Part shown: piece after piece, positions 657 to 59,858 of the stretch
How the letters are laid out: every line of letters begins with the position of its first letter
Position numbering within the stretch: position 1 is the stretch's first letter
Virus record (IMG/VR): IMGVR_UViG_3300028840_006907
Span: 256,001 to 320,000 of that record
DNA length: 64,000 nucleotides
DNA from: a virus
Direction: 5' to 3' (one strand)
Program-made: the position numbers and the translations under genes
Notes under the pieces: generated by a model
Databases searched by the model: none
Told to the model about the DNA's origin: nothing
The model's input: only the letters and a program-made list of their open reading frames with translations

Positions 657-2878
657 TGGGTAAACAAATTTTTAGTTCAGAGGGTTCCGATACTTTCACT
701 GTACCAAAAGGAGTGACTTCCATTACTGTCAAGGCATGGGGTGCAGGAGCTGGTGGTGGAGGGGGTGGAACGGCTAGTGTTGGTGGAGCCGGAGGTGGTG
801 GAGGTTATGTTCAGGGTGATATATCTGTAACACCTGAAGAAACCCTTAATATTCATGTAGGTGGAAATGGAGGTTTAGGAACTTTTACAGGTACCGCAGC
901 TTCTGGTGGTGGGGGAGGAGGTAAATCTTCAGTTTACAGAAGTACAACTCCTTTATTTGTAGCTGGCTCTGGAGGAGGCGGAGGTGGTGGTGATAATTCA
1001 TCAGGGACTCCGGCGGGAGCCGGAGGTGCTGGTGGAGGAAGTACTGGTGGGTCTGGTGGTTCTTCCGGAGGAGCTAGTGGCGGTAGTGGTGGCACTCAGT
1101 CAATTGGTGGAACACAGGGTTCTGGAGGTCAAAATGCAGGAGTTTTTGGAAAAGCTCGTGCAGAAACCACTTTAAATAATGCCTTAAATTTTGATGGTGA
1201 TCCTGAATATGTTACAATAGGAACAGATTCTGTTTTTAATTTTACTAATTCTTTTACCCTTGAATGTTGGATTAAACCCGATAATGTAACAGGATCTAAA
1301 AGGGTAATAAGTTCAAGATCATCTGATACCAATAATGGAGTTGGATTTGGTATTAACGGTAACAATCCTGCTTTTACAACATATGGTAAACAAGATTTTA
1401 CTTCTACTGGAACCGTTTCAGCAGGAGTTTGGGCTCATATAGCAGTAGTCTTTACTTCAGGTAATAATGCAAGATTTTATATAAATGGAGAGTTTATAAA
1501 TCAGGTAGACGGTACCCAAGCAGCTACAACTTCTGGTATATATATGGTTCTTGGTATGCTTGGTTTTTATGATGATGAACAATATTGGGTAGGTGAACTT
1601 GATGAAATAAGAATGTGGAATGATGAGCGTACTGATAAAGAGATATCTGATTATTATGCTCAAACTCTTACAGGTAGTGAAGCAAACTTAGTCGCTTACT
1701 ATAAATGTAATGAATCATCAGGTACAAATCTTCCCGACGAAACCACAAATAGTAATGATGGCACACTCCAAAATATGGAAGATGCTGATTGGGTTACATC
1801 AAGTTGGTCTCCATTGACAGACGCTGCTGATGCTGGGGCTGGTGGTGACGGTGGAATGGGTACTGGCACTGGGGGTGGTGGCTCTGGTGGCACAACATAT
1901 GGCGGTGATGGTGGAATTGGTGATAGTGGTGGCACCCCTGGATTTTCTGGCGGTGGCGGAGGCGGTGCAGGCTATGGTGGAGGTGGCGGGGGATCATGTT
2001 CGGTTTCTGGCGGAGACGCTGGTGGTGGTGGGGGCGCTGGCTCTAGCTATATTATAGGTACCGCTACGTCAACTACCAATACGCAAGCATCAGGCCAGAA
2101 TCCACCTAATACGGGCGACCCAGACTATACTGGTTCTGTAGGAGTTGGAGGAAATGGGGGTAGTACAAGTACAAATGGGAATAATGGTAATGATGGTTTA
2201 ATAGTTATCAGTTGGGTTGACCCTCCAGCATATATAGGTATGAAATTTGAATCAGATAGTTCACAATTTTTGTCTTCTGTAGCAAATTTTACCGCTCCTT
2301 CTAGTACAACTGTTACATTTTGGTTATCTTCTACTAATCTCACAGGATTAAAAAGAATTATTGGTTGGTCCGATTTTTGGGAAATAAAGACGATTGATAA
2401 TGATATATCTAATGATTTAAATGGAGAGTTAACCACTTATTCTACAACTCCATTAGATCTTAATACTCTTTATCATGTTGCTTGTACATATAATTCCTCT
2501 GATGATGCTGCGAAAGTATATATAGATGGGTCTCTTGATGGTACGGGTTCAAATACTGAAACTCCTTCTGGAACAACACTACAAATAGGTTTTAGACCTG
2601 GTGCACCTGACGGTTATTTTGACGGTTATTTAGGTGATATAAGAATTTATGATAGGGTTTTATCTGATTTTGAAATAGCCACAATTCATGCATGTCGAGG
2701 AACTGATGGAATAGTCCATGGTTTACGTAATAGGTATTTATTAAATGAAAGAGCAATGAATGTTGCTGCTGATGGGACAGGTTCGGTTAAAGATATGGCT
2801 CAGGATCAATTAAACATGACTCCAAATAATAGTCCTGTTTATGAAGGAACAACATTAAAATATAGAAGGATGGGTTGA
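656..2878 (+). CDS. Gly-rich repeat protein with two LamG-type jellyroll segments (fiber/adhesin-like)
   Basis: 740 aa; ATG overlaps upstream stop (TAATG); long poly-Gly tracts; LamG-like motifs LDEIRMWN and GDIRIYDR; C-terminal module shared with neighbours. Confidence 0.7.
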   Translation: MGKQIFSSEGSDTFTVPKGVTSITVKAWGAGAGGGGGGTASVGGAGGGGGYVQGDISVTPEETLNIHVGGNGGLGTFTGTAASGGGGGGKSSVYRSTTPLFVAGSGGGGGGGDNSSGTPAGAGGAGGGSTGGSGGSSGGASGGSGGTQSIGGTQGSGGQNAGVFGKARAETTLNNALNFDGDPEYVTIGTDSVFNFTNSFTLECWIKPDNVTGSKRVISSRSSDTNNGVGFGINGNNPAFTTYGKQDFTSTGTVSAGVWAHIAVVFTSGNNARFYINGEFINQVDGTQAATTSGIYMVLGMLGFYDDEQYWVGELDEIRMWNDERTDKEISDYYAQTLTGSEANLVAYYKCNESSGTNLPDETTNSNDGTLQNMEDADWVTSSWSPLTDAADAGAGGDGGMGTGTGGGGSGGTTYGGDGGIGDSGGTPGFSGGGGGGAGYGGGGGGSCSVSGGDAGGGGGAGSSYIIGTATSTTNTQASGQNPPNTGDPDYTGSVGVGGNGGSTSTNGNNGNDGLIVISWVDPPAYIGMKFESDSSQFLSSVANFTAPSSTTVTFWLSSTNLTGLKRIIGWSDFWEIKTIDNDISNDLNGELTTYSTTPLDLNTLYHVACTYNSSDDAAKVYIDGSLDGTGSNTETPSGTTLQIGFRPGAPDGYFDGYLGDIRIYDRVLSDFEIATIHACRGTDGIVHGLRNRYLLNERAMNVAADGTGSVKDMAQDQLNMTPNNSPVYEGTTLKYRRMG

Positions 2879-2881
2879 TAA

Positions 2882-5173
2882 ATGGGACAGCAATCTTTCA
2901 GTACAGCCGGTTTAACTTCATTTCAAGTTCCTGTTGATATTACATCTATAACGGTAAAGTGTTGGGCTGGTGGAGCTGGTGGAGGAGCCGGGGGGACTTC
3001 TGGTGTTGGAGGAGTGGGTGGCGGTGGTGGCTATGTTCAGGGAGATATAACCGTCACTCCTTCGGAAATACTTAGTATTCATCTTGGGGGTGCTGGGAAT
3101 TCAGGAAGTTTTGGAGGAACTTCTGGTTCTGGAGGTGGTGGTGCTGGTCTATCTAGTGTCTCGCGTGGCTCAACACCTTTATTTGTAGCCGGAGCAGGTG
3201 GGGGAGGCGGTGGTGGAGACAATAGTAATCCGGCTGCTGGTGGAGCTGGTGGGGCAGGAGGTTCCTCTACCGGAGGAACTGGAGGCAGTTCTCTAAATGC
3301 CAATGGAGGAACTGGTGGAAGTCAAGTATCTGGTGGTACTGGTGGTACTGGTGGTATAGTTTCAGGTGCTGCTGGAGGTGCCCCTATTTCTGCAGCAGCT
3401 AATTTTGGTAATTGCCTTGACTTTGATGGAACAGATGAATGGGTCTCTTCAGCTAATTCTTATTCTAATCCTCAGACTTTTACAACTGAGTTATGGTTTA
3501 AAACTACCACTACTTCAGGAGGATTATTAATTGGTTTCGGAAACAGTCAAACAGGAACTTCTACCAGTTATGACAGAAGGATCTGGTTAAGTAATTCCGG
3601 AAATGTCTATTGTGGAGTTTATGCTGGATTAATTTTAGGAGTTCAGACGGTAAATTCTTCTGGTACATATAATGATGGAGAATGGCATCATGTTGCAATG
3701 GTCCATGACTCTGGAGGGTTTGAATTATTTGTTGATGGTATATCACAAGGAACAAATGCAAATCCTTCACAAGATACTTTTACAGGTTACTGGCGACTCG
3801 CAGGAACTACGGTTTGGTCGGGATGGTCTCCTGCTCCTACTAATAATTATTATGTAGGTCAAATTGATGAAGTCAGATTTTGGCAAGAAGCTCGAACAAC
3901 TTGTCAATTAATAAATAATGCAAATAAATATTTAGCTGGAACTGAGACTAATTTAGCTTTTTATTGGAAATTAAATGAATCTTCCGGTTCTACCGCAAAT
4001 GATGAAACTACCAATAATAATGATGGCACACTCCAAAATATGGAAGATGCAGACTGGGTTACTTCTAGTTGGAGTGGTAAGTGGATAGGTATTGGTACTG
4101 GAGGTGATGGTGGAGACGGTAATGATGGAGGGACTACTAGAGGATCAGAGGCTAATGGAGGTATCACTTGTGCTGGATCAGGTGGTACAGCCGATGTCGG
4201 TGCTGCTGGTTATGGTGGCGGTGGTGGCGGTGGCGCTGGTTACGGTGGAGGTGGAGGAGGCTCGGCTTCTCAAGCTTCAAATGCTGGTGGAGGTGGTGGA
4301 GGAGGTGGCTCCAGTTATATAATTGGTTCTGCTACGTCAACTACCAATACGCAAGCTTCGGGACAGAATCCTCCCAACACAAGCGACCCGGACTATACTG
4401 GTTCTGCAGGAGTTGGTGGAAATGGGGGTGCTACAAGTACTGCAGGATCAAATGGTAATAATGGTTTGATTGTTATTAGTTGGACAGAACCTCCGACATA
4501 TGTTGGGATAACATTTGTAGCGAGTAGTTCTCAAAGATTGGCATCAGTAGCAAATTTTACTCCTCCTCAAAATTGCTCCGTATCATGGTGGTTAAAACTA
4601 TCTTCGTTGAATCAGTTTGGGAGGACAGCAAGTCTAAGTGTTAATTGGGAAATAGGTCTATCTGATAATGCAGGTACTCCTACTGCTAATGGTATTATTA
4701 ATGCTATGAATAGTGGTGCTCTTTTGTATTCTTCAACAAGTCTTCAAGCTGATCTTCGTTATCATGTTGTATGTACAGCAACTTCTAGTGCCCGTCAAAT
4801 ATTTTTAAATGGTGTTCTTGATAATAGTGCTGCTTCTGGAGGGACTGCTCCTGCAGCAGGGACTCTTTATGTTGGATGTCAATATGGTGGAACTCTATAT
4901 TTTCTTGATGGGGCTATAGAGGATTTAAGGGTATATAATCGGATAATTACTGCAGAAGAAGTGGCTACAATTTATGCTTGTGAAGGAAGAGACGGTATAA
5001 CATATGGCTTAATACATCGATGGCCTATGAATGAAGGTGCAGCAGGTGTTGTAGCGAGTGGTACTGGTTCTGTAAAAGATGAGGCTACAAATCAATTGAA
5101 TTTAACTGCAACTAATAGTCCAGTTTATTCTGGATCACAATTGAATTATAGACGAAAATATAGGACTCATTAA
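2882..5173 (+). CDS. Gly-rich repeat protein with two LamG-type jellyroll segments (paralog of 656-2878)
   Basis: 763 aa; same architecture; shares identical peptide NDGTLQNMEDADWVTSSWS and near-identical DNA patches with 656-2878. Confidence 0.7.
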   Translation: MGQQSFSTAGLTSFQVPVDITSITVKCWAGGAGGGAGGTSGVGGVGGGGGYVQGDITVTPSEILSIHLGGAGNSGSFGGTSGSGGGGAGLSSVSRGSTPLFVAGAGGGGGGGDNSNPAAGGAGGAGGSSTGGTGGSSLNANGGTGGSQVSGGTGGTGGIVSGAAGGAPISAAANFGNCLDFDGTDEWVSSANSYSNPQTFTTELWFKTTTTSGGLLIGFGNSQTGTSTSYDRRIWLSNSGNVYCGVYAGLILGVQTVNSSGTYNDGEWHHVAMVHDSGGFELFVDGISQGTNANPSQDTFTGYWRLAGTTVWSGWSPAPTNNYYVGQIDEVRFWQEARTTCQLINNANKYLAGTETNLAFYWKLNESSGSTANDETTNNNDGTLQNMEDADWVTSSWSGKWIGIGTGGDGGDGNDGGTTRGSEANGGITCAGSGGTADVGAAGYGGGGGGGAGYGGGGGGSASQASNAGGGGGGGGSSYIIGSATSTTNTQASGQNPPNTSDPDYTGSAGVGGNGGATSTAGSNGNNGLIVISWTEPPTYVGITFVASSSQRLASVANFTPPQNCSVSWWLKLSSLNQFGRTASLSVNWEIGLSDNAGTPTANGIINAMNSGALLYSSTSLQADLRYHVVCTATSSARQIFLNGVLDNSAASGGTAPAAGTLYVGCQYGGTLYFLDGAIEDLRVYNRIITAEEVATIYACEGRDGITYGLIHRWPMNEGAAGVVASGTGSVKDEATNQLNLTATNSPVYSGSQLNYRRKYRTH

Positions 5174-5220
5174 TTATAAAATTTACATATAAGATCTATA
5201 TAACATATAAGGAGGTTCAA

Positions 5221-5736
5221 ATGTATAAAACAGCATTAGTATGTGGAGTCTGGGACAAATTGCATGAAGGGCATAAAAATATAATTAAATATTCTATAGA
5301 AAATTCTGAATTACTGAAAATTTTTGTATTAGAAATTAATATACATGATAGACATGAAGAGCCTTTTATACCTTATGAAGAAAGAAAAAAAACAGTCGAA
5401 AATTATGTCCTTTCTTTAGGGGCAAGAGATAAGGTACAAATAATAGGAAAAAAAGATGCTACGGAAGTTATGGTATTGGATGAATTGAGAACTGTAGATT
5501 GCGCCTTTGCTTGTGCTAAAGATAAAAATCAGCAAATTTTAGAAATGATAAAAATAACTCAAGATAGAGTTGCTAAATTAGAAGGCCCTGATGGACGTAA
5601 GCCATTTGTTATGGAATGGGTAGATCCTGTGAAAAATGATGAAGGAAAAATAATCTCTTCAAGTAAATACAGGAAAAAAAGCCGTTTAGAAAAAGAAAAG
5701 AGAGTAAATTCTTCAGGTGGATATGGTCGATTTTAA
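5221..5736 (+). CDS. HIGH-motif nucleotidyltransferase (cytidylyltransferase-like)
   Basis: AGGAGG RBS upstream; N-terminal GVWDKLHEGH matches the GxFDxxHxGH signature of glycerol-3-P cytidylyltransferase-type enzymes. Confidence 0.5.
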   Translation: MYKTALVCGVWDKLHEGHKNIIKYSIENSELLKIFVLEINIHDRHEEPFIPYEERKKTVENYVLSLGARDKVQIIGKKDATEVMVLDELRTVDCAFACAKDKNQQILEMIKITQDRVAKLEGPDGRKPFVMEWVDPVKNDEGKIISSSKYRKKSRLEKEKRVNSSGGYGRF

Positions 5737-6959
5737 TGGCACAATATAAAGTTCGTACATCTAATGCTAACCAAGGCCAGTATATGAAAAATGCTGGCTC
5801 TCGAACTACTACTGGTCCATTACAATTTGGGAGATCTGGTAAAGGAACAGCAAATGATGTTCGAATAGCTTTAAGATGGCAACCAAATATAGATATGACT
5901 GGTAAATATATGATAGTTACTTCTGCCTATATTCGTGTTACAAGAGAGACTGAAGATACTGGCGCATTTACAGCTACAGTTAGAGTGCATAATGGTTCTG
6001 CTCCTGATTTATCTACAACTGATTTAGCTTGGGGTTATTCTGATATAGGTTATTCTCAATCATGGTCGATAGCAGATTCATGGAGTGCTGATACTGAATT
6101 TACTTCACCTGATATGAAAAGCGCAGTACAAGCTTGGTTTAATAGGAGTGCTCATTCAAGTACGGATTGGATTGGTTTCATTATTGATGATGGTGATTCT
6201 GCTGATGATGAATATAAAGGAGTCTATGATGCTGATCATTCTACTTCAAGTTATCGTCCTGAATTAGAAATAAATTATAAAATATATTCAGGAGGAGATA
6301 ATGGTGGATTATCTTTTACAGCATCGAGTTCTCAGTATTTGGAATCAGTTAGTAATATTACACCTCCTGCAACATCTTCAGTATCTTTTTGGATTTATTT
6401 AACTGAATTGAATCAATTTGGTCGAACTATTAGTCGATTTGCTTATGAAATTGGTCTATCAGATAATGCCGGATCTCCTCCTAATGGGATAGTTAATGCT
6501 ATGACTAGTGGAACTATACTTGTATCAAGTTCTCTTACAGTGAATACCCTTTATCATTGTGTTTGTACGGCCTCATCTACTGCTCGACAGATATATCTTA
6601 ATGGAGTATTGAATACTTCAGGAGGTGGTGGTACGGTATCAACAGCAGGGACTATGTGGATCGGGTCACAAGATGGTGTTGATTTTTTCCTATCTGGTCA
6701 TTTAGAAGATATACGAATTTATAATCGTATCCTTACATTAGCTGAAGTTCAAACTATTTATGCTTGCCAAGGCTCAGATAGTATTACTTATGGATTAATT
6801 CATAGATGGCTTATGAATGAGGGTCCGATAAGTTCGGTAGCAAGTGGTACTGGACTAGTAAAAGATTATGGGATAAATCAAGTAAATATGACTCCATTTA
6901 ATAGTCCAGTTTTTTTAGGAACTCAAATGAAAAATAGGAATAAGTATAGGACCCATTAG
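5736..6959 (+). CDS. fiber-like protein, unique N-terminal domain plus shared C-terminal LamG-type module
   Basis: 407 aa; ATG overlaps upstream stop; C-terminal ~200 aa paralogous to 3-656 and to C-termini of 656-2878 and 2882-5173 (EDIRIYNR, ...KYRTH end). Confidence 0.65.
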   Translation: MAQYKVRTSNANQGQYMKNAGSRTTTGPLQFGRSGKGTANDVRIALRWQPNIDMTGKYMIVTSAYIRVTRETEDTGAFTATVRVHNGSAPDLSTTDLAWGYSDIGYSQSWSIADSWSADTEFTSPDMKSAVQAWFNRSAHSSTDWIGFIIDDGDSADDEYKGVYDADHSTSSYRPELEINYKIYSGGDNGGLSFTASSSQYLESVSNITPPATSSVSFWIYLTELNQFGRTISRFAYEIGLSDNAGSPPNGIVNAMTSGTILVSSSLTVNTLYHCVCTASSTARQIYLNGVLNTSGGGGTVSTAGTMWIGSQDGVDFFLSGHLEDIRIYNRILTLAEVQTIYACQGSDSITYGLIHRWLMNEGPISSVASGTGLVKDYGINQVNMTPFNSPVFLGTQMKNRNKYRTH

Positions 6960-7048: not shown

Positions 7049-8779
7049 ATGGCAGATGTATTAAATAGAACAACGAAAGAACAGAGGTTCAGTGTTCATA
7101 CTCCCGATTATTCAGTAGTAGACTGGATAATAAATCCAGATCTATCCGGAGTGATTGGAGTCCCAGTAAAATATTGGAAAATAGATGGTGATGTTGTTTC
7201 AGAGATGAATCAATCTGAAAAAGATGCGGTTGATAGTGCTCTATTGCCTGGTATAAAAACAGCTAAAAAAGCTTCTTTAAGAACAGAGGGTGACCAATTA
7301 ATAGAAAATCAAGGCTATTCAGCAGGTAAACAAAGATCATTAATTTCTCAGCATTCTAAAAGTACTAAAATGAAACCCAAAAGAGAAAAGTATGTTAGAG
7401 ATTTTATGGATTGGATTGAGCAAGTAGATGAAGAAGTCGTATTAAAACAAGATTTGGTAGATGATCAGACTTCAGAAGCAGGAGTAAATTCTGTTATTTT
7501 AGATTCTGCAGGTCTTATTGCTGCTGATCCTGGTGTTACCATTTCAGGTACTCTTGATACTACAGATAGTTCTAGCTTAGATAATTATCTTGATACAAAT
7601 GCTGAAGTGACTGATCCATTAACCGGTATTGTAGGTCCGTGGGATCAAATGCAGATATTAAATCATCGACGTGAAATATATAATGACTCATCAAATCCAA
7701 TTTATTGGCCTGATAATACTGCCATTTTAGGTTCGGGAGGTTATTTAGAAGATCATGCCAATCGGATTAATAATCTTGAAGTGATTCATGGAAAGTTAGG
7801 TTGGCATAATCAATTAATAACTCAAGCGACTTATACTCGACCTAAAGATCTGCTCATTTATTATGGGTGGTTAAACTCTTATAATTCAGGAATTCTTTCT
7901 TGGAACAATGAGAGCGTGGCTCAGCATATGGCGAGATATAGTCTTCTTGTTTTTGGAGACGGTATTCAGGATCCTGGCCATGGAGATTATGCCAATACTC
8001 AAGTTATTGTTCCACGTGTAAAGGCTTTAAGTTGTTATTCTGAAATTTATGGCTATGTAACTGTTGATCAAACTTTTAGTGATTTTACTTCAAAAGTTGA
8101 TCAATGGGATACCTTACAAGTAGATGGAATATTTTTAGATGAAGCGGGTTATGATCATGGTCGGACTCGGGATGAATTTAATCAGAGAGTAGATTATGTC
8201 CATGGCAAAACTTATGCTAATAAATGTTTTGCTAATGCTTGGAATACAGATCATATTTTAGGAATAACCAATGATCCTAGTTATCCTGATTCTACATATA
8301 ATGACTCTTGTGCTGAATCTAATTTAACTTTAAACGATTGGATTCTTCTTGAAAGTTTTCCTGTCAATACTACAGCATATGCAGCAAATGATGGGTATGA
8401 ATCTATCAGTGATTGGGCCACAAGAGGAGTAAAAGCGAAAGATTTAAGAGCTACATATGGTGTAAATTTTGCCAGTGTTAGTATGATTTCCAATGACCAT
8501 ACAGATAATACTGCTTTATCTAACTTTGCCTTTACTTCTTCGATGATGTTTTCATTAGAAGGTCATGGAACCTCAGATACCAATTATGCTGCTAGTTCTG
8601 CTAGGGTTAATTATTTTCCTCGTCCAGATATCACACAAATGGGAGTTGTTTATAGCTTAAATTGTTCTGTCCAAATTGATGCGAATGATTCGTCAGTCTA
8701 TCATAGATATACACCGAATGCTAAAATGTCGTTAGATTTTTCTGATGGTGCTCATACAAGTACTATAGCAAAATTTTAA
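7049..8779 (+). CDS. putative TIM-barrel glycoside hydrolase (GH114/spherulin-4-like), long form
   Basis: 576 aa; C-terminal ~300 aa paralogous to 9276-10208 (LLIYYGWLN, LVFGDGIQDP, VDGIFLDEAGYD); family assignment is by motif resemblance only. Confidence 0.5.
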   Translation: MADVLNRTTKEQRFSVHTPDYSVVDWIINPDLSGVIGVPVKYWKIDGDVVSEMNQSEKDAVDSALLPGIKTAKKASLRTEGDQLIENQGYSAGKQRSLISQHSKSTKMKPKREKYVRDFMDWIEQVDEEVVLKQDLVDDQTSEAGVNSVILDSAGLIAADPGVTISGTLDTTDSSSLDNYLDTNAEVTDPLTGIVGPWDQMQILNHRREIYNDSSNPIYWPDNTAILGSGGYLEDHANRINNLEVIHGKLGWHNQLITQATYTRPKDLLIYYGWLNSYNSGILSWNNESVAQHMARYSLLVFGDGIQDPGHGDYANTQVIVPRVKALSCYSEIYGYVTVDQTFSDFTSKVDQWDTLQVDGIFLDEAGYDHGRTRDEFNQRVDYVHGKTYANKCFANAWNTDHILGITNDPSYPDSTYNDSCAESNLTLNDWILLESFPVNTTAYAANDGYESISDWATRGVKAKDLRATYGVNFASVSMISNDHTDNTALSNFAFTSSMMFSLEGHGTSDTNYAASSARVNYFPRPDITQMGVVYSLNCSVQIDANDSSVYHRYTPNAKMSLDFSDGAHTSTIAKF

Positions 8780-8788
8780 GAGGATTTT

Positions 8789-9262
8789 ATGGATGTTTTA
8801 TTTGATGTTTATGATTCTGTTGGGGGTGTAGATGTTGATAGTGCTGTAACAGTATTATTTGATACTTCGAGATATATATGTAATAATGTGTCTTTATTAT
8901 CAGGAGAAATTAATATCTTACCTAATTCTCATAGTATAATTCCTCCAGACAATGATATCTTATTACTTATGGCAAAAGTTACAATAGATGCTGTTAGTGG
9001 GAATAATCAAACTCAAGCAAAGATATGGCTCGAAGTTGACACAGGTTCAGGTTATGTAGTGGTACCTGGAACTGATAGTTATTCTTATAGTATTTCAAAT
9101 AGTGTGGGTCATGGTACTGCTATTATAAATACCACATATCAAATTAGTAAATTAAATAAGATTATTTGTAAATTTAGAGTTAGAGCAGAAAAATCAGTGG
9201 GGAATAATTCTTTAAGTACACTAGCTCAAGCTAGTAATTTCATAGGTTTAATTAACGAATGA
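8789..9262 (+). CDS. hypothetical protein
   Basis: 157-aa ORF with RBS-like AAGAGGA upstream, located between the two glycosidase-like paralogs. Confidence 0.55.
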   Translation: MDVLFDVYDSVGGVDVDSAVTVLFDTSRYICNNVSLLSGEINILPNSHSIIPPDNDILLLMAKVTIDAVSGNNQTQAKIWLEVDTGSGYVVVPGTDSYSYSISNSVGHGTAIINTTYQISKLNKIICKFRVRAEKSVGNNSLSTLAQASNFIGLINE

Positions 9263-9275
9263 GGGAGGATTATTT

Positions 9276-10208
9276 ATGAGACCAAAGAACCTGTTAATTT
9301 ATTATGGGTGGCTTAACGCTTATAATAGCGCAGAAAATCAATGGCAAAATGAGAACGTGGCGATTGACCTTTGTAAATATAATGTACTCGTTTTTGGAGA
9401 TGGGATTCAGGATCCAAGTCACGGGGATTTTGCAAATACTCAAGCAATACTCGCTCGAATCAGGGAATTAAACCCAGCTTCATTGATTTTCGGTTATGTG
9501 ACTGTAAACCAATCTATAACAGATTTTACTACAAAAGTAGTATTATGGAATGATCTTGAAGTTGACGGCATCTTTATGGATGAAGCAGGCTATGATTATG
9601 GGAAAAATCGTGCTGAGTTAAATAGTCGTATTGATGTTGTCCATAGTCAAGAGACAGCAAATACATGCTTTTTAAATGCTTGGAATATTGATCATATTCT
9701 TGGTATAGAAGAAGATTCAAATTTTCCTAATGCCACTTTTAATCCAGGTTTAGTAGATTCTAATGCTTATGAAGATGATTGGTATTTATTAGAAAGTTTT
9801 GCCGTTAATACTTCAGCTTATGGTACAAATGATGGGTATGCTAATGGAAGTGAATGGGTTGTTCGTGGAAATAAAGCTATAGAAAAACGAAAAGAATATG
9901 GTATAAAGTTAGCCTCAACTGGAATTATTAATGATGATAATCCTGAAGGTCAGAGTTTATTTGATTTTTGTTATAGGTCTGCATTGGCTTTTAGTTTAAA
10001 TGCCAATGGTACTTCGGATGCTTTTTATGGAGCTAGTTCTGCAGCTACTAAATATTGGGATCGTCCTAAACCTTATCATTTCACCAAAGAGGAAGAATTT
10101 TCTGTAGTGGAAGATCAGAAGACAGCTAATGCTTATATTAGATTTTTTCCATTCATGAAAGTAACTCTTAATTTCGGAACCAATAGTTCATCTATATTAA
10201 GATGGTAA
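9276..10208 (+). CDS. putative TIM-barrel glycoside hydrolase (GH114/spherulin-4-like), short form
   Basis: 310 aa; GGGAGG RBS; paralog of 7049-8779 C-terminal region. Confidence 0.5.
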   Translation: MRPKNLLIYYGWLNAYNSAENQWQNENVAIDLCKYNVLVFGDGIQDPSHGDFANTQAILARIRELNPASLIFGYVTVNQSITDFTTKVVLWNDLEVDGIFMDEAGYDYGKNRAELNSRIDVVHSQETANTCFLNAWNIDHILGIEEDSNFPNATFNPGLVDSNAYEDDWYLLESFAVNTSAYGTNDGYANGSEWVVRGNKAIEKRKEYGIKLASTGIINDDNPEGQSLFDFCYRSALAFSLNANGTSDAFYGASSAATKYWDRPKPYHFTKEEEFSVVEDQKTANAYIRFFPFMKVTLNFGTNSSSILRW

Positions 10209-14870: not shown

Positions 14871-15257
14871 ATGTCGAAGAAAAAAGGTTTAGGACAACAT
14901 GTTGAGAAATCTCTTACTGTGATGGATGATCTAGCAAAGGGTTTAAAAGATTTTGCTCATATGCCTTTGAAAAAAGGTTTAGTTTCAAACGATACCTATG
15001 ACGATGATATAGGGAAATTAATTAATAGTGCTAAGGAAGAGGCTTTTGCCCTTATTAATAAAATCGATGATTTAAAGCATAAAGTAAAGGGTATGAAGAA
15101 AAAGCACAATAGCCGTTTTGCTAGAAATGTTGTAGCTCGTTTTCTTGAGTCTAAGACTGAGATGGAAGAGTGGGTAAAAACGGTTAAAGAAGAAAAAGTT
15201 AGTGAAGATCCTGAAAAATGGGTAAAAACAGTCAAAGAGAAAAAGGTTCAGAAATAA
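14871..15257 (+). CDS. hypothetical protein
   Basis: Start chosen at ATG with AGAAGGA RBS (track start 14835); C-terminal short repeat EEWVKTVKEEKV/EKWVKTVKEKKV. Confidence 0.5.
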   Translation: MSKKKGLGQHVEKSLTVMDDLAKGLKDFAHMPLKKGLVSNDTYDDDIGKLINSAKEEAFALINKIDDLKHKVKGMKKKHNSRFARNVVARFLESKTEMEEWVKTVKEEKVSEDPEKWVKTVKEKKVQK

Positions 15258-15259
15258 GA

Positions 15260-15276
15260 TTAATAATCTTCTAATA
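15260..15276 (+). promoter_or_regulatory. conserved 17-nt motif, variant TTAATAATCTTCTAATA (copy 3)
   Basis: Starts 3 nt after the stop at 15257; 41 nt upstream of ATG 15318. Confidence 0.45.
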
Positions 15277-15317
15277 ATGCTTTAAAAGGCAACAATAATA
15301 AATAAAGGTATTTAGCG

Positions 15318-15887
15318 ATGAATATTATTTTATTAGTCCCCAAAGTGGTACAAAATTATATAGGTCAATTTCCAGAAGTTAGACATAATGCATATAATTA
15401 TTTCAATTATGATAACAGAATCATAGATGAAAGAGTTAATCGTCATGATCAAAAGCCCCCTTATAAAGGGCCAGATGATTTTTCTAATCCGGATTATGAC
15501 GCTTTGATTACATATGCTAAAACTATAATAAATCCTATTCTAGCTAAATATAGTATGAAAGTGGCTCATGAGGATGCTCTTCATACAGCAATTCGTGATT
15601 TCAATAACGGTTTATTCGATGGTAAAGTTAATGCCTCTAAATTTGAAGTATTGTTGAAAGGGATGGCTTTACCTGCAGTGCCAATGCAACCTCCTTGTCC
15701 GTGTGGGGTTATGGCCAAGAAAGAAGATAAAAAAGAAAAACCTACTGAAATTAAACCTCATGTTTTAAAACAGTTAGGTTTAAGTCCTAAAGATATTCCA
15801 ATGAGACAAGTTGTTAAAAAAGTGGTGCAAAGAGGTAAGGCACCCCTTGTTGTTCGTGAAAAAGGTAAGCATATAATTAAGAAATAA
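15318..15887 (+). CDS. hypothetical protein
   Basis: 189-aa ORF with ATG start. Confidence 0.55.
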   Translation: MNIILLVPKVVQNYIGQFPEVRHNAYNYFNYDNRIIDERVNRHDQKPPYKGPDDFSNPDYDALITYAKTIINPILAKYSMKVAHEDALHTAIRDFNNGLFDGKVNASKFEVLLKGMALPAVPMQPPCPCGVMAKKEDKKEKPTEIKPHVLKQLGLSPKDIPMRQVVKKVVQRGKAPLVVREKGKHIIKK

Positions 15888-15917
15888 ATTTACAAAAAAA
15901 TACTAAGGAGGATTGTA

Positions 15918-16250
15918 ATGGCTCTTAAGAATGCGAAAGAATATACTGAAAGATTAGACAAAATCGCTGATAAAATTGAAAAGATTTCTCCAGAACTTGC
16001 TCTCTGCATAGATAAAATCTCAGATGTTATTGAGGGCAAAAAAGATGCTTCTACTCTTAAGTTTGATCCAGATGAAGCAAAATACATGGCTAATCGTTTT
16101 AACTTTGATGTACGTCAACGTGAAGCTGATGAACCTTACATGGATAATTTCAACAAGAGTGATTTCGAACAAGTAATGGATGAAAAGAAAAATCCAGAGC
16201 CAATCCGTACTGCAAGCGTTCCTTATCAAAAAGTACAAGAAGAAAAATAA
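15918..16250 (+). CDS. hypothetical protein
   Basis: 110 aa; strong RBS TAAGGAGG. Confidence 0.6.
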   Translation: MALKNAKEYTERLDKIADKIEKISPELALCIDKISDVIEGKKDASTLKFDPDEAKYMANRFNFDVRQREADEPYMDNFNKSDFEQVMDEKKNPEPIRTASVPYQKVQEEK

Positions 16251-16283
16251 TTTTTGTTCTCTTTTGATTTAAGGAGGTAATTA

Positions 16284-16820
16284 ATGCCTGCATTATATCC
16301 ATCAGCGGTGGCACCTGAGGCTTTTAAACCAGGTGAATGCGTTAGAAGGTTTGTAACGGAATGGAATGTTACTCCCTATTTGGGTGTTGTGTCACATATT
16401 GTTCCGGCAACTAGTAAAGTATGGGTTCAATGGCCTTTTGGGTCTCAACCTGAAGATCCTGAATTTCTTGTTAAAGTAAATCCTGATGTTGCAGGAATGC
16501 CTACAGCTTTTATTGATCGAGGTTATAACTCTTATGAGAAGACTTTGTCGGAAAAGGCTTATGGAGCTATTCCTAAAAGAATAATACCTAGTCGTGACTG
16601 TGTTAAACCTATAGTTGTTACTGCTCGGGATAAAATGGCCATACGTATTGCTCATACATTTGCTACTCGGACGATAGGGAGTCTTGTTGATGACATTGAA
16701 GGTTGTTTAAAAGATGGTATGACAGATGTACAGACCTATAATAAAATCTTTAATAAATATGGGACTATATGTTCTGATTATATCATAAAATCTTCAATTA
16801 AAAAGATTTATCAATCGTAA
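16284..16820 (+). CDS. hypothetical protein
   Basis: 178 aa; RBS AAGGAGG. Confidence 0.6.
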   Translation: MPALYPSAVAPEAFKPGECVRRFVTEWNVTPYLGVVSHIVPATSKVWVQWPFGSQPEDPEFLVKVNPDVAGMPTAFIDRGYNSYEKTLSEKAYGAIPKRIIPSRDCVKPIVVTARDKMAIRIAHTFATRTIGSLVDDIEGCLKDGMTDVQTYNKIFNKYGTICSDYIIKSSIKKIYQS

Positions 16821-17420: not shown

Positions 17421-18989
17421 ATGGCAATGCTAAAATACGGCTCGGCTGTTATAATCGATTCTGAAGTAAGCACTGATCAGTGGTCTAAGAGTGTTTGTTG
17501 CGGTAATAAAGGTAAACATTCTTGTGGTGAAGGTAAATGCCGGGTCAAGATTGCTAAAAATGTATTTGCTAAATATACTCCTGAGAAATACTTATTGAGC
17601 CATTGTACGATTATAGCTGCAGTTGATACTGAATTAGCTAATCCTTCTGATCCTAAAAGTGATTATTATATCCATCCTAATTTTTCCAAATATGTAAATA
17701 ATAATGGTGATGCATGGTCAAAGCAGATGCTTGCTTCATGTTACCGTTCTTTTATAGGTTCCCATAATTACTTGGAACATGTACAAATACCCGAACTCAG
17801 TAAGGGGAGGGTAATTGATGCTATTCTGAGAGAAGTCCCTATAGGACGAGATAAACAGGGTAAAGAGTTAACAACCTATTATGTTGATATTCTTGTTGCT
17901 ACTGAGAGAAAGCATAAACAGTTAATAGCTGATATTCAATCAAAGAAGCTTAATTCTCTTAGTATGGGATGTAAAATAGCTTATAGCATATGTACTAAAT
18001 GTGGTAAAAAGGCAGTAGATGAAACAGAGGCTTGTCAGCATATTCGTTTTGAAAAGAACAATATGTTTTATGATAATAATGGTGTTCAACGTAAGGTAGC
18101 TGAATTGTGTGGCCATTATTCTGAGCCTGAGAGTGTTACTTTCATCGATGCTTCATGGGTAAAAAATCCTGCATTTACTGGTGCTGTAATTCGAAATATC
18201 GTTAATCCACCAGAAAACATCTTGGCTAAAATTGAGGAAGCTAGTAAAAAAGAAAGTTATCTGATTCAAGAAGATGATTTTCTTAAGGCTGCTCATAAAA
18301 TAGCCCAGGATCCTCCAGCAGAAGAAGAACCTCCTGCAGAGGAAGAGACTGCTCCTGATACTGAGGCACCAGAAGCTCCTCCTGAAGAAGCTACTCCAGC
18401 CGATGAAGGTGGTGCTGTTGAAGAGCCTCCTGCCGAGTTACCTGAGGTAGATCAGAATAATGTCAAGACTTGGAAAAATGAGGTAAAGAAAAAGGTCCTT
18501 CAAGAATTGGGTGATGAATTAGTTGAAGAGATGACAAAAGAAGATGATATGGGACCTCGTGAATTAGAAACTTTGGATGATAGTTTAATTCAACCAACCG
18601 CATCTCAAGCATTAAAGCGTATGTGGGTATTAAAGGAAGGTTGGAATAAATTCCTGAAGGAAACGACAAATGGTTTAAGTAAAGATAATCATGATCGGTT
18701 AAAATTCGGTGCTTTCATAATGTTGAATAGCAATGATCCTAAAGTTTTATCTCATTATGGTTATAACCGTAGGGATTTTTTAGCAGTGATGTCTTACATA
18801 GATCAATTTTTTAAGAATCGTTTACCAGTAAGAGTGAAGAAAGCAGTAGCTAAGCTCAATGGTACGAAGGATTTATCATTAAAAGATACTGTACATTCTT
18901 TACAAAAGCTTTCGGGAAAAAGGCTTGCTGAAAAAGAAATTAAGAAGTCTTTAGTGTGGTTAAAATTAATGGATTTGTACAAAGAATAA
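17421..18989 (+). CDS. hypothetical head-module protein with Cys clusters and acidic Pro/Glu-rich segment
   Basis: 522 aa; CCGNKGKHSCGEGKC and CTKCGK...C motifs; low-complexity PPAEEEPPAEEE segment; lies between portal and scaffold-like gene (no protease motifs recognised). Confidence 0.6.
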   Translation: MAMLKYGSAVIIDSEVSTDQWSKSVCCGNKGKHSCGEGKCRVKIAKNVFAKYTPEKYLLSHCTIIAAVDTELANPSDPKSDYYIHPNFSKYVNNNGDAWSKQMLASCYRSFIGSHNYLEHVQIPELSKGRVIDAILREVPIGRDKQGKELTTYYVDILVATERKHKQLIADIQSKKLNSLSMGCKIAYSICTKCGKKAVDETEACQHIRFEKNNMFYDNNGVQRKVAELCGHYSEPESVTFIDASWVKNPAFTGAVIRNIVNPPENILAKIEEASKKESYLIQEDDFLKAAHKIAQDPPAEEEPPAEEETAPDTEAPEAPPEEATPADEGGAVEEPPAELPEVDQNNVKTWKNEVKKKVLQELGDELVEEMTKEDDMGPRELETLDDSLIQPTASQALKRMWVLKEGWNKFLKETTNGLSKDNHDRLKFGAFIMLNSNDPKVLSHYGYNRRDFLAVMSYIDQFFKNRLPVRVKKAVAKLNGTKDLSLKDTVHSLQKLSGKRLAEKEIKKSLVWLKLMDLYKE

Positions 18990-20564: not shown

Positions 20565-21437
20565 ATGGCTGAAATTAGCAATCAAGTAAAACAAGAAATT
20601 ATTGCTGAGTATATTAAAACTGCCGGTGGACGTGCGAAACTCGCTGCGTCAATGACTCAGCCTTTACGTCTTAGGAGAGACTACACCAGTGTAGGTCGTA
20701 AGACTTTCTTGGTAGAACAGCTCCCTGACGGTGCATTACCAATTTATGACAAAGATCCTAATGTCACAGCATATGTGATTGGTGAAGAAGGTGCCAACAT
20801 TTTGGCTATCACCAAACCTCGCCGTGTCATTTTTCCTTTGTTTGAAATTGCATCCAATCCGGAAATTCCGTTAACTCAAATCAAAGAACGTCGTTTCGAT
20901 CTCATCGAACGTGCTCAAGACCTTGCTAAATCAGAAATTCAGGCTGAAGAAGACACACGTGTTTTTGAAGTTCTGGATGCTGTAGCAACAAATGGTTTTG
21001 ATAACATCGGTGCAACGAATGCAGATATCCCTGCAACTGCTCCTCTTACACCTTCAGACCTCGCTGATGCTTTTGCACTAGTAGAGCGCCATGATCTGCG
21101 TGTAGCAAGAGTATTTGCCAATGCACTGGATTACAGTGACATTCGTAAGTGGGGACGTGATGTTCTTGATATCGAGAGTCAGGCAACATTACTTAAAACT
21201 GGTCTTATGGCAACCGTTTGGGGAGCCCAGATCATAGTTTCAAGAAAAGTTCCTGTAGGATACATCTATGTATGTGCAGAACCTGAATTCTTTGGCCGGA
21301 TACCTGTCCGTACAGAGCTTACAGTTCTCTCTGCTGATGATCCACGTAACCGTACAATCGGATTTTCATGTTTTGAAAATCTTGGTATTGGTTGCCACAA
21401 TCCTCTCGGCTTGGATCGTGTCGTACTTTCTCGATAA
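20565..21437 (+). CDS. major capsid protein candidate (HK97 fold)
   Basis: 290 aa; RBS GGGAGG; followed by a strong terminator; head-module context; resemblance to HK97-fold/encapsulin-type shell proteins is by eye only. Confidence 0.55.
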   Translation: MAEISNQVKQEIIAEYIKTAGGRAKLAASMTQPLRLRRDYTSVGRKTFLVEQLPDGALPIYDKDPNVTAYVIGEEGANILAITKPRRVIFPLFEIASNPEIPLTQIKERRFDLIERAQDLAKSEIQAEEDTRVFEVLDAVATNGFDNIGATNADIPATAPLTPSDLADAFALVERHDLRVARVFANALDYSDIRKWGRDVLDIESQATLLKTGLMATVWGAQIIVSRKVPVGYIYVCAEPEFFGRIPVRTELTVLSADDPRNRTIGFSCFENLGIGCHNPLGLDRVVLSR

Positions 21438-21892: not shown

Positions 21893-22028
21893 GCTAAAAA
21901 AATTTGTAATTATTCTTCATTTAAAACGTTTTGATTTAAAAGAAGTTATCATATTTTATGGTAACTTTTTTTCATTTGTTTAAAAAATTTTGCTGTTCGT
22001 TTCCCTTCTAAACCTTGTATTAATATGT

Positions 22029-23063
22029 ATGGGAAAGAAATGCAAAGATAAGCACTGTTTTAATGATGCTGAAATAAAAGGTTATTGTGTAAGGCATTAT
22101 TTTAGCCTACCTAGATGTGAGTATCCTGGGTGTCCGAATATTACTCTTGTTAAAAACGGCCTCTGTAAAAAACACTCTGAATTAGATCCAAAAGACATAC
22201 CTAATTATAAACCGAAAAGAAGACAGGAATCGGTTAAAAGGGAAATTAAGTTTCCTAAAAATTGGAATCATTTTTCTTTGGAACAGAAAAAAATCCTTCT
22301 TAATAAGGAAACGAAGTCTAAATTAATAATATATATCTTAAAAAAGGATCAAAGTTTTGATGTAAAGAATGCTTGTAAAAGGAGGCTTCTGGAATTAGGG
22401 TGTGAAATACCAAAAGATTTAACGTATAAATGTAAAGTCCCTGGTTGTGATAATGGTCCAAGTTCGTTAAATCATTATACTAGTGGATTTTGCCAAACTC
22501 ATTATCAGCAATATCTAAAAGGAATAATAGATAAAGACGGTAAATCAATCAGGGATTTGGTAGATGTAGGGAAACACAATGCTAATATATCTCCTGAAAG
22601 GGCTATATTATCTAAATATAATACTTTAATTAAAGGCATACACCATATCAGGAAAGAATTGCGAAATCTGAGAGATATGTCCTTTGACATGGATTATAAA
22701 TTTAATTTCTTTCCGCAATTAGGGTTTGTTGAAGACAGTTTAAAATTTATTTATAGTCCCCATTTTATTCTGAAGAATACATCGTTTTTGAAAAACACTA
22801 CATTAAAGGAGATCTTGGGAGAGAAAGAAGAACACGCACAGGTGATGTTGAAATTAGATGGCAATGAATATAAGGGGGAATTGATTCAGGGAGATGAATC
22901 AAAAATATTCATTACTGATAAAATAGATAAGAAAGGTTCAGTAGTTCTTTTTTTGAGAGGTATAGAAGATTTTACAGAATATCCTTTTGAATGCAAAGCT
23001 TATGATAAGGAAACTAACATAGTACAGAATATACGAATAGAGGAAATTCGTGAAGATAAGTAG
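22029..23063 (+). CDS. Cys/His-rich repeat zinc-finger protein (putative DNA-binding)
   Basis: Start set at first ATG (track start is TTG at 21990); three copies of Cx3-4(G)Cx7-12GxCxxH(Y): CFNDAEIKGYCVRHY, CEYPGCPNITLVKNGLCKKHS, CKVPGCDNGPSSLNHYTSGFCQTHY. Confidence 0.55.
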   Translation: MGKKCKDKHCFNDAEIKGYCVRHYFSLPRCEYPGCPNITLVKNGLCKKHSELDPKDIPNYKPKRRQESVKREIKFPKNWNHFSLEQKKILLNKETKSKLIIYILKKDQSFDVKNACKRRLLELGCEIPKDLTYKCKVPGCDNGPSSLNHYTSGFCQTHYQQYLKGIIDKDGKSIRDLVDVGKHNANISPERAILSKYNTLIKGIHHIRKELRNLRDMSFDMDYKFNFFPQLGFVEDSLKFIYSPHFILKNTSFLKNTTLKEILGEKEEHAQVMLKLDGNEYKGELIQGDESKIFITDKIDKKGSVVLFLRGIEDFTEYPFECKAYDKETNIVQNIRIEEIREDK

Positions 23064-28607: not shown

Positions 28608-29783
28608 ATGATTCCAGAAAATAATTCTCTATTAGATTTGACAGGTGAAAAATTTGGAGACTGGAAAGTTATTTCTCGTGCTTCAAATATTAAAGGCCAT
28701 ACCAGATGGCTTTGTGTCTGTAATTGTGGTAAAAAAGTTCCTGTTTATACCTCAAGTTTAAGGTCAGGAAAATCAACTAGTTGTGGGCATAAGAAAAGAA
28801 ATTTCATAGATTTATCAGGTAAAAGATTTGGTAAGTTATATGTAATTGGTGAGACAACAAAAAACCCTTATACCTATGCCTTAAGATATCGTTCCAAAAA
28901 TAAAGGAAAATGTTGGGAATGTTTATGTGATTGTGGAAATAAATGTATTGTAACTTCTAGGAATTTGTTATCGGGTAATACTAAAAGTTGTGGTTGTTTA
29001 GGGATTTTTTCTGATCCCACTAAAGGTTCTAAAAAGGCTCTTTTTAGAAAATATAAAAGAAGTGCAAAAATAAGAGACCATTCTTTTAATATATCTTTTG
29101 ATCAATTTTTAGTTATGATAGATCAAGAGTGCTTTTATTGTGGAAAAAGTCCTTCTCAAACTTTTAAAGGTAATAGAGAAGATTTTCTTTATAATGGTAT
29201 TGATAGATTAGAGAGTAATAGAGGTTATGAAATAGGTAACATAGTTACTTGTTGTAAAGAATGTAATTATTTAAAATGGACAAAAAGTATTAACGATTTT
29301 TTAATATGGCTAAAAATGTGTTATAATCATTTAAATCTTGAGTTCACTGACTCCCTTTTAACTATCCAAATAAATTCAAATGAAGTGGATATTCAAAATA
29401 ATGAAAAATATAATCTAAGAAAAGATGATCCTTGTTATTACTCTAAGAATACGTTTTATAATGTTTATAAAAATGTTTGTGGTAAGAAAAGAGGGTTAAT
29501 TTTTGAATTGAGTTTTGAGGAATTCTTTTCTATTAGTCAAAGGAAATGTTTTTATTGTGGTATAGAACCTAATAAGCTCTTTAAAAAGGGTTCAAGTAAA
29601 GGATTCTTTTATAATGGTCTTGATAGGATAAATAATGACATGGGTTATATCAAAGATAATATTGTTACTTGTTGTTCAATTTGCAATGAATCTAAGATGA
29701 ATTTAGATCAAAAAATTTTTATTAATAGAATCAAAAAATGCTATGGATATTTAAAGAAATATTATTTAAAAAAATTTTTTTGA
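28608..29783 (+). CDS. tandem HNH-like (His-Me finger/zinc-ribbon) endonuclease-like protein
   Basis: 391 aa; N-terminal CxC..C zinc knuckles; two repeats of CFYCG...YNG(I/L)DR(L/I)..N.GY...NIVTCC..CN..K (HNH-like, His replaced by Arg in DR). Confidence 0.5.
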   Translation: MIPENNSLLDLTGEKFGDWKVISRASNIKGHTRWLCVCNCGKKVPVYTSSLRSGKSTSCGHKKRNFIDLSGKRFGKLYVIGETTKNPYTYALRYRSKNKGKCWECLCDCGNKCIVTSRNLLSGNTKSCGCLGIFSDPTKGSKKALFRKYKRSAKIRDHSFNISFDQFLVMIDQECFYCGKSPSQTFKGNREDFLYNGIDRLESNRGYEIGNIVTCCKECNYLKWTKSINDFLIWLKMCYNHLNLEFTDSLLTIQINSNEVDIQNNEKYNLRKDDPCYYSKNTFYNVYKNVCGKKRGLIFELSFEEFFSISQRKCFYCGIEPNKLFKKGSSKGFFYNGLDRINNDMGYIKDNIVTCCSICNESKMNLDQKIFINRIKKCYGYLKKYYLKKFF

Positions 29784-39322: not shown

Positions 39323-39610
39323 ATGAATAGGTATGACATTATTTTGGGTAACAATAGTCGGTTAGCGATGATGGAAAAATGGTCCCCTAAAGATTATAGA
39401 CAGGAATATTTAGGGGAATTCGTAAAACCAACATGTTCAGTTTCTGATGGTCATAATAATTATTGCCCATCAAAACCAGAACATTTTTTTGAGTATCATG
39501 GTAAAGAAGTGGGTTTATGTAAAGACTGCTATTTACATTATTTAAATGGACATTTTGATAAAAGATTTCAGAAAAAGAATTATGGTTATACCATCTATCA
39601 AATCGATTAA
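39323..39610 (+). CDS. small Cys-containing hypothetical protein
   Basis: Start at ATG (track TTG start at 39296); 95 aa; CSVSDGHNNYC...CKDC. Confidence 0.4.
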   Translation: MNRYDIILGNNSRLAMMEKWSPKDYRQEYLGEFVKPTCSVSDGHNNYCPSKPEHFFEYHGKEVGLCKDCYLHYLNGHFDKRFQKKNYGYTIYQID

Positions 39611-39611
39611 A

Positions 39612-57480: not shown

Positions 57481-57601
57481 GGGTGGCCAGCCCCGCGTAG
57501 GCGGGGAAAAGGGATACGATAAGAAAAAATCTGCTCTGTGGAACAGCCCCACGAAAGTGGGGAATAATGCCACCCATTTTAAAAGATAGTATTGGGTGGT
57601 C
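57481..57601 (+). other. GC-rich multi-hairpin element between convergent genes
   Basis: Hairpins CCCCGC-GTAG-GCGGGG (57491-57506) and CCCCAC-GAAA-GTGGGG (57547-57562); GGGTGGC (57481-87) and GGGTGG (57594-99) both complementary to GCCACCC (57569-75). Confidence 0.5.
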
Positions 57602-57631
57602 TTTTAAATCAACTCTAAATTTTCCAGGAGT

Positions 57632-58096: not shown

Positions 58097-58148
58097 TCCT
58101 CTCTATATATTATACCAGTCAAATAGCCATTTTATACCAAAAAAAATT

Positions 58149-59856: not shown

Positions 59857-59858
59857 TT

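Follow-up and report, generated by a model that had tools for sequence, protein, structure and literature searches.

We describe two paralogous genes near the distal end of a fibre gene array in a 64,000-nucleotide stretch of viral DNA (positions 256,001 to 320,000 of IMG/VR record IMGVR_UViG_3300028840_006907; hereafter the window, with coordinates counted from its first nucleotide), both of which encode proteins with a glycosidase-like triosephosphate isomerase (TIM) barrel: a long form at 7049-8779 and a short form at 9276-10208. In our view the best explanation of the data, to which we assign a joint probability of roughly 0.55, is that the two proteins belong to the (beta/alpha)8 superfamily of retaining endo-alpha-glycosidases that holds glycoside hydrolase (GH) families GH168, GH191, GH166 (PelA), GH135 (Sph3) and GH114, and that the long form acts as a depolymerase, docked on a fibre, against an alpha-linked polysaccharide of the host, with the short form either free or co-assembled. 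According to this model, the two paralogues close the array of receptor-binding genes ahead of the portal gene, and in the long form an N-terminal module (N-module), followed by a helical stalk and a conserved linker, would dock onto the C-terminal Laminin_G_3 domain of the upstream fibre protein, perhaps in the way that Tfa-type chaperones and caps bind the tip of a fibre. Particles so equipped would degrade an alpha-linked capsule or exopolysaccharide of the host as they adsorb, and the short form, as the bare enzyme, would be freed at lysis or co-assembled with the long form. The paralogy, the fold, the conservation of an acidic residue pair, the genomic position, the sharing of modules and the gene order are directly established by the analyses described below.

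Both open reading frames (ORFs) proved to be as the sequence-only reading of this stretch had given them, on the plus strand with ATG starts and Shine-Dalgarno-like motifs upstream (AAGGAG before 7049 and GGGAGGA before 9276). The paralogy proposed in that reading is equally clear: by BLASTP, residues 264-576 of the long form align with residues 2-310 of the short form at 49% identity and 68% positives (E 5e-108), and the shared blocks that it had picked out (LLIYYGWLN, LVFGDGIQDP and VDGIF(L/M)DEAGYD) are all found in the translations. The extra N-terminal region that had been noted in the long form is also present, at 263 residues rather than the estimated 250 or so. The long form thus runs from the N-module through a helical region and a pre-barrel linker into the TIM-barrel glycosidase-like domain and a C-terminal beta-sheet, and the short form is barrel from residue 4 onward with no anchor; neither protein has a signal peptide. 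Both are acidic, with isoelectric points (pI) of 4.6-4.7, and a generally acidic, halophile-like proteome was rejected as the cause because the median pI of the 49 window proteins is 6.2. Neither paralogue, nor the 157-residue ORF between them, has a match in PHROGs or NCBIfam, and no further copies of the N-module, the linker, the barrel or the 157-residue ORF occur elsewhere in the window.

The structural prediction on which the glycosidase proposal had been made to depend came out in its favor. AlphaFold2, supplied with a 49-sequence alignment, yields a confident (beta/alpha)8 barrel for the short form (mean predicted local distance difference test score, pLDDT, 93.2; predicted template modelling score, pTM, 0.91), in which eight alternating strand/helix units are followed by a three-stranded C-terminal sheet. 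When this model was used as a Foldseek query, the top four PDB matches were all GH168 enzymes, at identities of 10-16% in the structural alignments. GH168 enzymes combine a barrel with a small beta-sandwich (PMC11685898), and the window proteins, whose nearest structural neighbors they are, likewise carry a small C-terminal beta-sandwich after the barrel; the (beta/alpha)8 fold of the Spherulin4/GH135 family is also seen in the models. The GH168 members with the nearest fold are endo-alpha-1,3/1,4-L-fucanases (Fun168A, Fun168D, PbFucA and Rho5174; PDB 9jos, 9jof, 9nhf, 9f9v and 8rg5). These are secreted bacterial catabolic enzymes for sulfated fucans, however, whereas the window proteins are acidic, free of signal peptides and phage-encoded, and the GH168 substrate is unlikely to be theirs.

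The likeness to GH114 and GH135 suggested by the sequence-only reading holds in part. Spherulin4, which corresponds to GH135, is the sole Pfam signal in the paralogues and falls below threshold, while Glyco_hydro_114 gave no Pfam-A match at E<=1 for the window proteins and the nearest solved fold is that of GH168. Among close homologues, 40 of 49 match Spherulin4 at E<0.01, and two relatives score above the curated Pfam cut-off of 30.2 bits for this family (PF12138), P0176 with 42.8 bits and P0121 with 35.3 bits; the clade therefore borders on or overlaps PF12138. The GH135 enzyme Sph3 is a membrane-anchored fungal protein on which the synthesis of galactosaminogalactan depends; the window proteins differ from it by an additional C-terminal sheet and, in the long form, by a fibre-type N-terminal module. 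PelA (GH166), GH191 and the GH114 endo-alpha-1,4-galactosaminidases differ in turn in being cellular enzymes of biofilm matrix systems, as opposed to phage-encoded proteins that lack a Pfam GH114 match; a three-stranded insertion following beta3 has been described for them. A HMMER scan of 1.84 billion protein representatives, clustered at 50% identity, placed the size of the family at 980 clusters at E<=0.001 and 295 at E<=1e-30. Some metagenomic relatives carry several barrels per protein, such as P0121 (1879 residues, with three matched stretches and immunoglobulin-like (Ig) domains) and P0210 (4081 residues, with two). The family is not restricted to phages, since a distant cellular relative (28% identity) is found at 5797-6994 of L019, a 957-kb contig of a cyanobacterial metagenome-assembled genome (MAG); this gene, apparently split by a frameshift, lies between genes for multi-pass membrane proteins and an AAA-type ATPase gene in what is possibly an exopolysaccharide locus.

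To examine the putative active site we compared 282 domains drawn from 265 proteins of the family. Strand 4 of the short form terminates in D102, within the motif GIFMD-EAGYD (GIF[LM]D-EAGYD across both paralogues) and E173 lies on strand 6 (LLE-SF), 71 residues further on; the equivalent residues of the long form are D364 and E435. The D102 position is Asp in 264 of 272 domains and the E173 position Glu in 262 of 269, and across the set no substitution occurs at R112 or D168, while H49, G73 and N134 each exceed 94% conservation. Enzymes of GH114, GH135, GH166 and GH191 use an Asp nucleophile and a Glu acid/base, which the C-terminal face of the barrel presents at a sequence spacing of 56-69 residues (PMC12054363), and the corresponding GH168 pairs are D206/E264, D152/E228 and D184/E254, such that the spacing of 71 residues fits the 56-76 range spanned by these five families. 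Because no solved glycosidase is matched at the sequence level, we assigned the pair by position, spacing and conservation, and we regard D102/E173 and D364/E435 as candidate nucleophile and acid/base. All of the related families comprise retaining enzymes that cut alpha-linked polymers in endo mode, either polymers of galactosamine and N-acetylgalactosamine such as Pel and galactosaminogalactan, or sulfated fucans. The acidic pI of the paralogues weakly favors a neutral or cationic substrate over a sulfated polyanion; the hint is weak because the fibre proteins are equally acidic.

The region ahead of the barrel offers a potential means of attaching the long form to the particle. In the long-form model a beta domain (residues 1-52) is followed by helices at residues 55-87, 92-108 and 110-138, a flexible stretch at residues 171-180 with pLDDT of about 60, the helical linker at residues 185-263 and then the barrel. 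A database search recovered about 90 proteins of 146-350 residues with N-termini 60-75% identical to the N-module (consensus MADVLNRTTKE..WIINPDLSGV.GVP.KYWKI.GD.VSEM.QSEKDAVD) and with C-termini that vary among DUF4376, an Ig-like He_PIG domain, glycine-rich regions and others. The pre-barrel linker (consensus TDPLTGI.GP...HRRE.YND..NP.Y...ILG..G.L..HA.R...LE.IHGKLGWHNQ), for its part, is kept in almost all long forms irrespective of what their N-terminus is. DUF4376 is a conserved domain of Tfa-type tail fibre assembly proteins, which are encoded right after the fibre gene and bind the fibre tip with their N-terminal part (PMC7882524, PMC10579305); DUF4376 itself (PF14301) has no match in the long form and was seen only in the small N-module proteins.

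The gene order around N-module genes resembles that of the Tfa-type proteins. The fibre array proposed upstream of the pair is real, in that the products of 42-656, 656-2878, 2882-5173 and 5736-6959 all carry Laminin_G_3 domains and match PHROGs labelled virion structural, tail fibre or tail fibre assembly, and the pair sits between these four fibre-type genes and the portal gene, within a receptor-binding block. The gene that directly precedes the long form, 5736-6959, encodes a protein with a C-terminal LamG domain that closes with a basic tail (..KNRNKYRTH). We sampled five unrelated contigs with N-module genes (L032, L034, L035, ERZ1426812 and L037), and in the first four the N-module gene overlaps the stop codon of a Laminin_G_3 gene or starts a few bases after it. 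The same order is found in the window, where 7049 follows 5736-6959, and in the close relative L029, so that in six cases the N-module gene stands directly after what would be its cognate fibre gene. The C-terminal domains of the upstream Laminin_G_3 proteins are mutually homologous in the window, L029, L032, L034 and L035, and most end in a basic tail. From this gene order and the homologous LamG C-termini we infer that the N-module may dock the long form onto the C-terminal Laminin_G_3 domain of the 5736-6959 protein; catalysis, substrate and presence on the virion are likewise inferred. Known Tfa-type proteins and caps, such as Mu U/TfaMu and gp27 of Alteromonas phage V22, are also encoded directly downstream of a fibre gene, and the Tfa-type small proteins with a C-terminal DUF4376 have the same N-module as the long form, which differs from them in carrying a glycosidase-like barrel in place of DUF4376.

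A more far-reaching and clearly more tentative reading is that these genes form a plug-in system, in which the N-module recognizes the Laminin_G_3 C-terminus of the fibre, including its basic tail, and mounts interchangeable cargo in trans at the fibre tip. The cargo across phages would be a Tfa-type chaperone, an Ig-like or glycine-rich domain or a glycosidase, the long form would be one such payload, in effect an enzymatic fibre cap, and the barrel family would deserve a GH family of its own. If this were true, a depolymerase would be delivered by chaperone-style docking and not be built into the fibre polypeptide.

Comparison with relatives points in the same direction as the gene order in the window. 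The tandem pair of long and short forms is also found in L029 and in L005, a 246-kb phage contig, in each case upstream of small pre-portal genes. The long forms group with one another (77% and 59% identity), while long and short forms share about 50% identity; the short forms of the window and L029 are 71% identical, and the L005 short form groups clearly with neither type. Since long forms resemble each other more than they resemble the short form of the same genome, the duplication predates the split between the window and L029 lineages and both copies have been retained. Elsewhere the domain is fused to Prophage_tail and CBM_4_9 (P0245), the intramolecular chaperone Peptidase_G2 (P0247), a YadA stalk (P0202), a pectate-lyase-type beta-helix (P0239), collagen-like repeats (the L005 long form) and BclA_C-type heads (by a Pfam match on P0088), and in BFVD it occurs in a fibre protein named 'tip attachment protein J'. 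A 485-kb relative has neither the pair nor a Laminin_G_3 array upstream of its portal gene, which is as expected for a swappable host-range module. Virion-borne depolymerases (tailspikes and enzymatic fibres), which have a modular N-terminal domain for binding the particle, are similarly encoded in the receptor-binding block, and like them the long form joins a conserved N-terminal module, here a candidate for fibre binding, to a swappable C-terminal domain. As with them, the cassette here is present or absent among related phages, and its relatives are fused to tail-tip proteins and to Peptidase_G2, which is typical of tailspikes. Classical phage depolymerases form trimers built as right-handed beta-helices, beta-propellers or triple beta-helices, and the catalytic-type unit described here differs from them in being a TIM barrel.

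Several observations weigh against this interpretation, and a first group of them concerns the barrel and the long form. Spherulin4 scores of 20.8 bits for the short form and 16.3 bits for the long form both lie under the cut-off, and sequence and profile searches of PDB chains with the short form, the family alignments and P0176 matched no solved glycosidase; profile searches with two family alignments against all PDB chains, GH168 structures included, gave no GH match at E<=10. The long-form model has a pTM of 0.67, which leaves the relative orientation of its domains uncertain, and in L037 the N-module gene follows a gene with no Pfam match on record. The only two cultured phages with the domain, moreover, each replace one residue of the pair: E to R in gp079 of Bacillus phage WH1 (L039 5662-11346) and D to K in gp050 of KLEB27-3 (L003 7785-14021). 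In these Bacillus jumbo phages a distantly homologous, degenerate copy of the domain lies near the N-terminus of an 1894-residue protein annotated as 'virion structural protein' (WH1) and of a 2078-residue protein annotated as 'tail fiber protein' (KLEB27-3), both of which adjoin Laminin_G_3 or other structural proteins; a literature search found no papers on either phage. These two copies are probably non-catalytic, judging by their substitutions, and the loss of a pair residue in both implies that the fold can serve a non-catalytic fibre role. This leads to the alternative that the barrel is a lectin-like binding head on fibres, with its acidic residues kept for sugar binding only, a view with which the placement of the WH1 and KLEB27-3 domains inside giant fibre or structural proteins and the lectin-type Laminin_G_3 neighbors are consistent. 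We consider it quite unlikely, however, given that both acidic residues are present in both window proteins and in about 97% of the 282 family domains, and that the polar set H49, N134, D168 and R112 is invariant or, for the first two, close to it, conservation of a kind typical of active enzymes.

A second group concerns the short form. Stand-alone short forms occur in the huge-phage contigs L004 (345 kb) and L030 (411 kb) amid small non-structural genes, from which it follows that the short form does not have to be a virion component. Such genes, together with the absence of any anchor or signal peptide from the short form, would also suit a scenario in which both forms are free late enzymes that are released at lysis, where they would thin the matrix or biofilm and stop progeny from sticking to debris. 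As an account of both proteins we find this distinctly improbable, because it leaves unexplained the conserved N-module of the long form, its strict position after Laminin_G_3 fibre genes and the fusions to tail proteins in relatives. It may hold for the short form alone, a case that the fibre-docked depolymerase model already includes. Accordingly, of the virion association put forward by the sequence-only reading, the anchoring of the long form by its N-terminal region gains indirect support from the shared N-module and the gene order, whereas virion association is not supported for the short form, which is anchorless and in other huge phages stands alone among non-structural genes.

The remaining observations of this kind concern the origin of the glycan. 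A very large (~27 kb) glycan-biosynthesis cluster occupies 29866-57480 of the window on the plus strand. It encodes fusion proteins of the GT2-TPR-methyltransferase and GT2-GT4-methyltransferase types, a UDP-glucose dehydrogenase, two epimerase/dehydratases, a sugar nucleotidyltransferase, a formyltransferase, a PIG-L deacetylase, a DegT aminotransferase, the nonulosonic acid synthase NeuB and a CMP-type cytidylyltransferase, with a thymidylate kinase gene mid-cluster (39546-40247), and this content suggests that the phage may produce a sialic-acid-like sugar as well as one that is aminated or formylated. With such a cluster in the same window as the pair, the barrel enzymes might trim or remodel a glycan that the phage itself makes during infection, for example one decorating its fibres or capsid, instead of acting on the host surface from outside. 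Sph3 and PelA, which are among the closest families by sequence and fold, act in polysaccharide biosynthesis systems (galactosaminogalactan for Sph3 and Ega3, Pel for PelA; PMC12054363), a cytidylyltransferase-like gene (5221-5736) lies within the fibre array, neither paralogue has a signal peptide, and short forms elsewhere stand amid non-structural genes, all of which speak for a role in processing the phage's own glycan. Such a role nevertheless seems unlikely to us. The pair is about 20 kb from the cluster with the head module between, its conserved neighbors are fibre genes and the portal gene, the fusions in relatives are to tail-tip, tailspike-chaperone and collagen/BclA_C fibre modules and not to synthases, and L029 retains the pair without the cytidylyltransferase gene. 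We therefore continue to favor a fibre-docked depolymerase directed at a host polysaccharide. The features of the window that bear on this reading, together with the head genes, are collected in Table 1.

Table 1. Positions in the window of the paralogues, their parts and candidate catalytic residues, and the neighboring fibre and head genes.
Feature	Coordinates	Strand	Basis or remarks
Three Laminin_G_3 fibre-like genes	42-656 (cut by window edge), 656-2878, 2882-5173	+	Pfam, PHROGs
Laminin_G_3 (ConA-like lectin) fibre-type protein, 407 aa	5736-6959	+	Pfam E 1.4e-17
Long paralogue, 576 aa	7049-8779	+	ORF call, translation, AlphaFold2 model (pLDDT 93.0, pTM 0.67)
N-module, small beta domain, aa 1-66	7049-7246	+	Kinship with ~90 N-termini; strands within aa 2-52 in model
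Helical region, aa 67-184	7247-7600	+	Model; homology to middle of P0266-P0273, P0277, P0279
Pre-barrel linker, aa 185-263	7601-7837	+	Conserved across nearly all long forms
Long-form (beta/alpha)8 barrel and C-terminal beta-sheet	7838-8779	+	Candidate D364 (8138-8140), E435 (8351-8353)
157-aa ORF between paralogues	8789-9262	+	Own GAGGA ribosome-binding site; two homologues
Short paralogue, 310 aa	9276-10208	+	Candidate nucleophile D102 (9579-9581), acid/base E173 (9792-9794)
Portal with intein, 1117 aa	11131-14484	+	Pfam LAGLIDADG_3, Intein_splicing, Hom_end; portal PHROG matches on both flanks
Prohead protease	17421-18989		Family matches
HK97-type major head protein	20565-21437		Family matches

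The Laminin_G_3 fibre proteins, which are preceded in the full contig by a 2404-residue protein, are mosaic in structure. Those of 740 and 763 residues share an N-terminus of about 115 residues that is 71-73% identical to that of a 530-residue protein of L029 (region 2283-6163), and the products of 656-2878, 2882-5173 and 5736-6959 have a common C-terminal LamG domain with a basic tail (..YRTH), a pattern which suggests that there may be several fibres alike in both base and tip. The 5221-5736 gene inside the array, on the plus strand, encodes a cytidylyl/adenylyltransferase-like protein of 171 residues with weak matches to pantetheine-phosphate adenylyltransferase and glycerol-3-phosphate cytidylyltransferase, and is missing at that place in L029. 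The 157-residue ORF between the paralogues has no Pfam match but has two homologues at 55-58% identity, both in close relatives, and is therefore a genuine yet lineage-restricted gene; in L029, which is 71-77% identical to the window in the two paralogues, it is missing and the paralogues directly adjoin. BLASTP showed no similarity of this ORF either to the BclA_C-like extension at the C-terminus of P0104 or to the 150-residue ORF that follows the pair in L005, and its origin as a detached copy of one or the other was rejected.

Downstream of the pair follow, in order, the genes for an intein-containing portal protein, a prohead protease and an HK97-type major head protein. The major head protein is 77% identical to that of the 485-kb uncultured phage LR745208.1, 49.5% identical to that of Tunturiibacter phage Tunturi_5 (309 kb) and 40% identical to that of Bacillus phage G (498 kb); judged by this head-gene set and these identities, the source of the window is a huge tailed phage of the phage-G lineage. 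An identical copy of the short-form protein is present on metagenomic contigs of 388,651 and 469,617 bp, and the long-form gene was called with 100% identity on JGI and Logan contigs. A DNA search with 7049-10208 among 50,697 phage records gave zero matches. Scanning genomes with the barrel profile recovered relatives of 24-32% identity in Acidobacteriota, Cyanobacteriota, Saprospiraceae and other MAGs and a single match of 45% identity on a 66-kb contig that is probably mis-binned, and none of the relatives recovered by these scans gave a pointer to the host. No tRNA genes were found in the 64-kb window, and a promoter and terminator scan of 5-11.5 kb gave nothing that exceeded shuffled expectation.

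Inteins and nuclease-like genes are also present in the window and in other contigs. The portal protein of L029 is intein-free at 630 residues, and L005 has an intein in another gene, of 932 residues. Two HNH/endonuclease VII-type homing-endonuclease-like genes (21990-23063 and 28608-29783, plus strand) come right after the head module of the window, and of their products the one of 391 residues has several HNH PHROG matches in two separate stretches. In the phage-like contig L004 (345 kb), a TnpB/Cas12f-like gene (Pfam Cas12f1-like_TNB; 15030-16556, minus strand) lies 4 kb from the stand-alone short-form homologue. Near 57.6 kb of the window, gene orientation flips from plus to minus and GC skew falls from about +0.2-0.3 to about zero or negative (window ~57500-64000), which together mark a module boundary.

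Capsules and biofilm matrix are stripped chiefly with phage depolymerases, and to our knowledge nearly all of these that have been characterized are beta-helix, beta-propeller or triple-helix trimers. A literature search found no paper that ties Spherulin4, GH135, GH114 or GH166 to phage depolymerases or tailspikes, and UniProt and BFVD contain a small number of phage proteins with this fold, whose names were assigned automatically. Virion-associated depolymerases are already known as a kind; what is new here is an uncharacterized TIM-barrel family together with a probable chaperone-style docking module. Our analysis ties a family of Sph3/PelA/GH168-superfamily barrels, no member of which has been characterized, to the fibre modules of huge phages and the tail proteins of other phages, and this family offers a different catalytic scaffold from that of the classical enzymes. 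If active, its members could cut alpha-linked matrix polymers, for example Pel-like or fucan-like ones, for which few phage enzymes are known, and the barrel family might define a new glycoside hydrolase family. Furthermore, the conserved placement of an N-module gene behind a Laminin_G_3 fibre gene provides a testable rule for how accessory proteins may be mounted on the fibres of uncultured phages.

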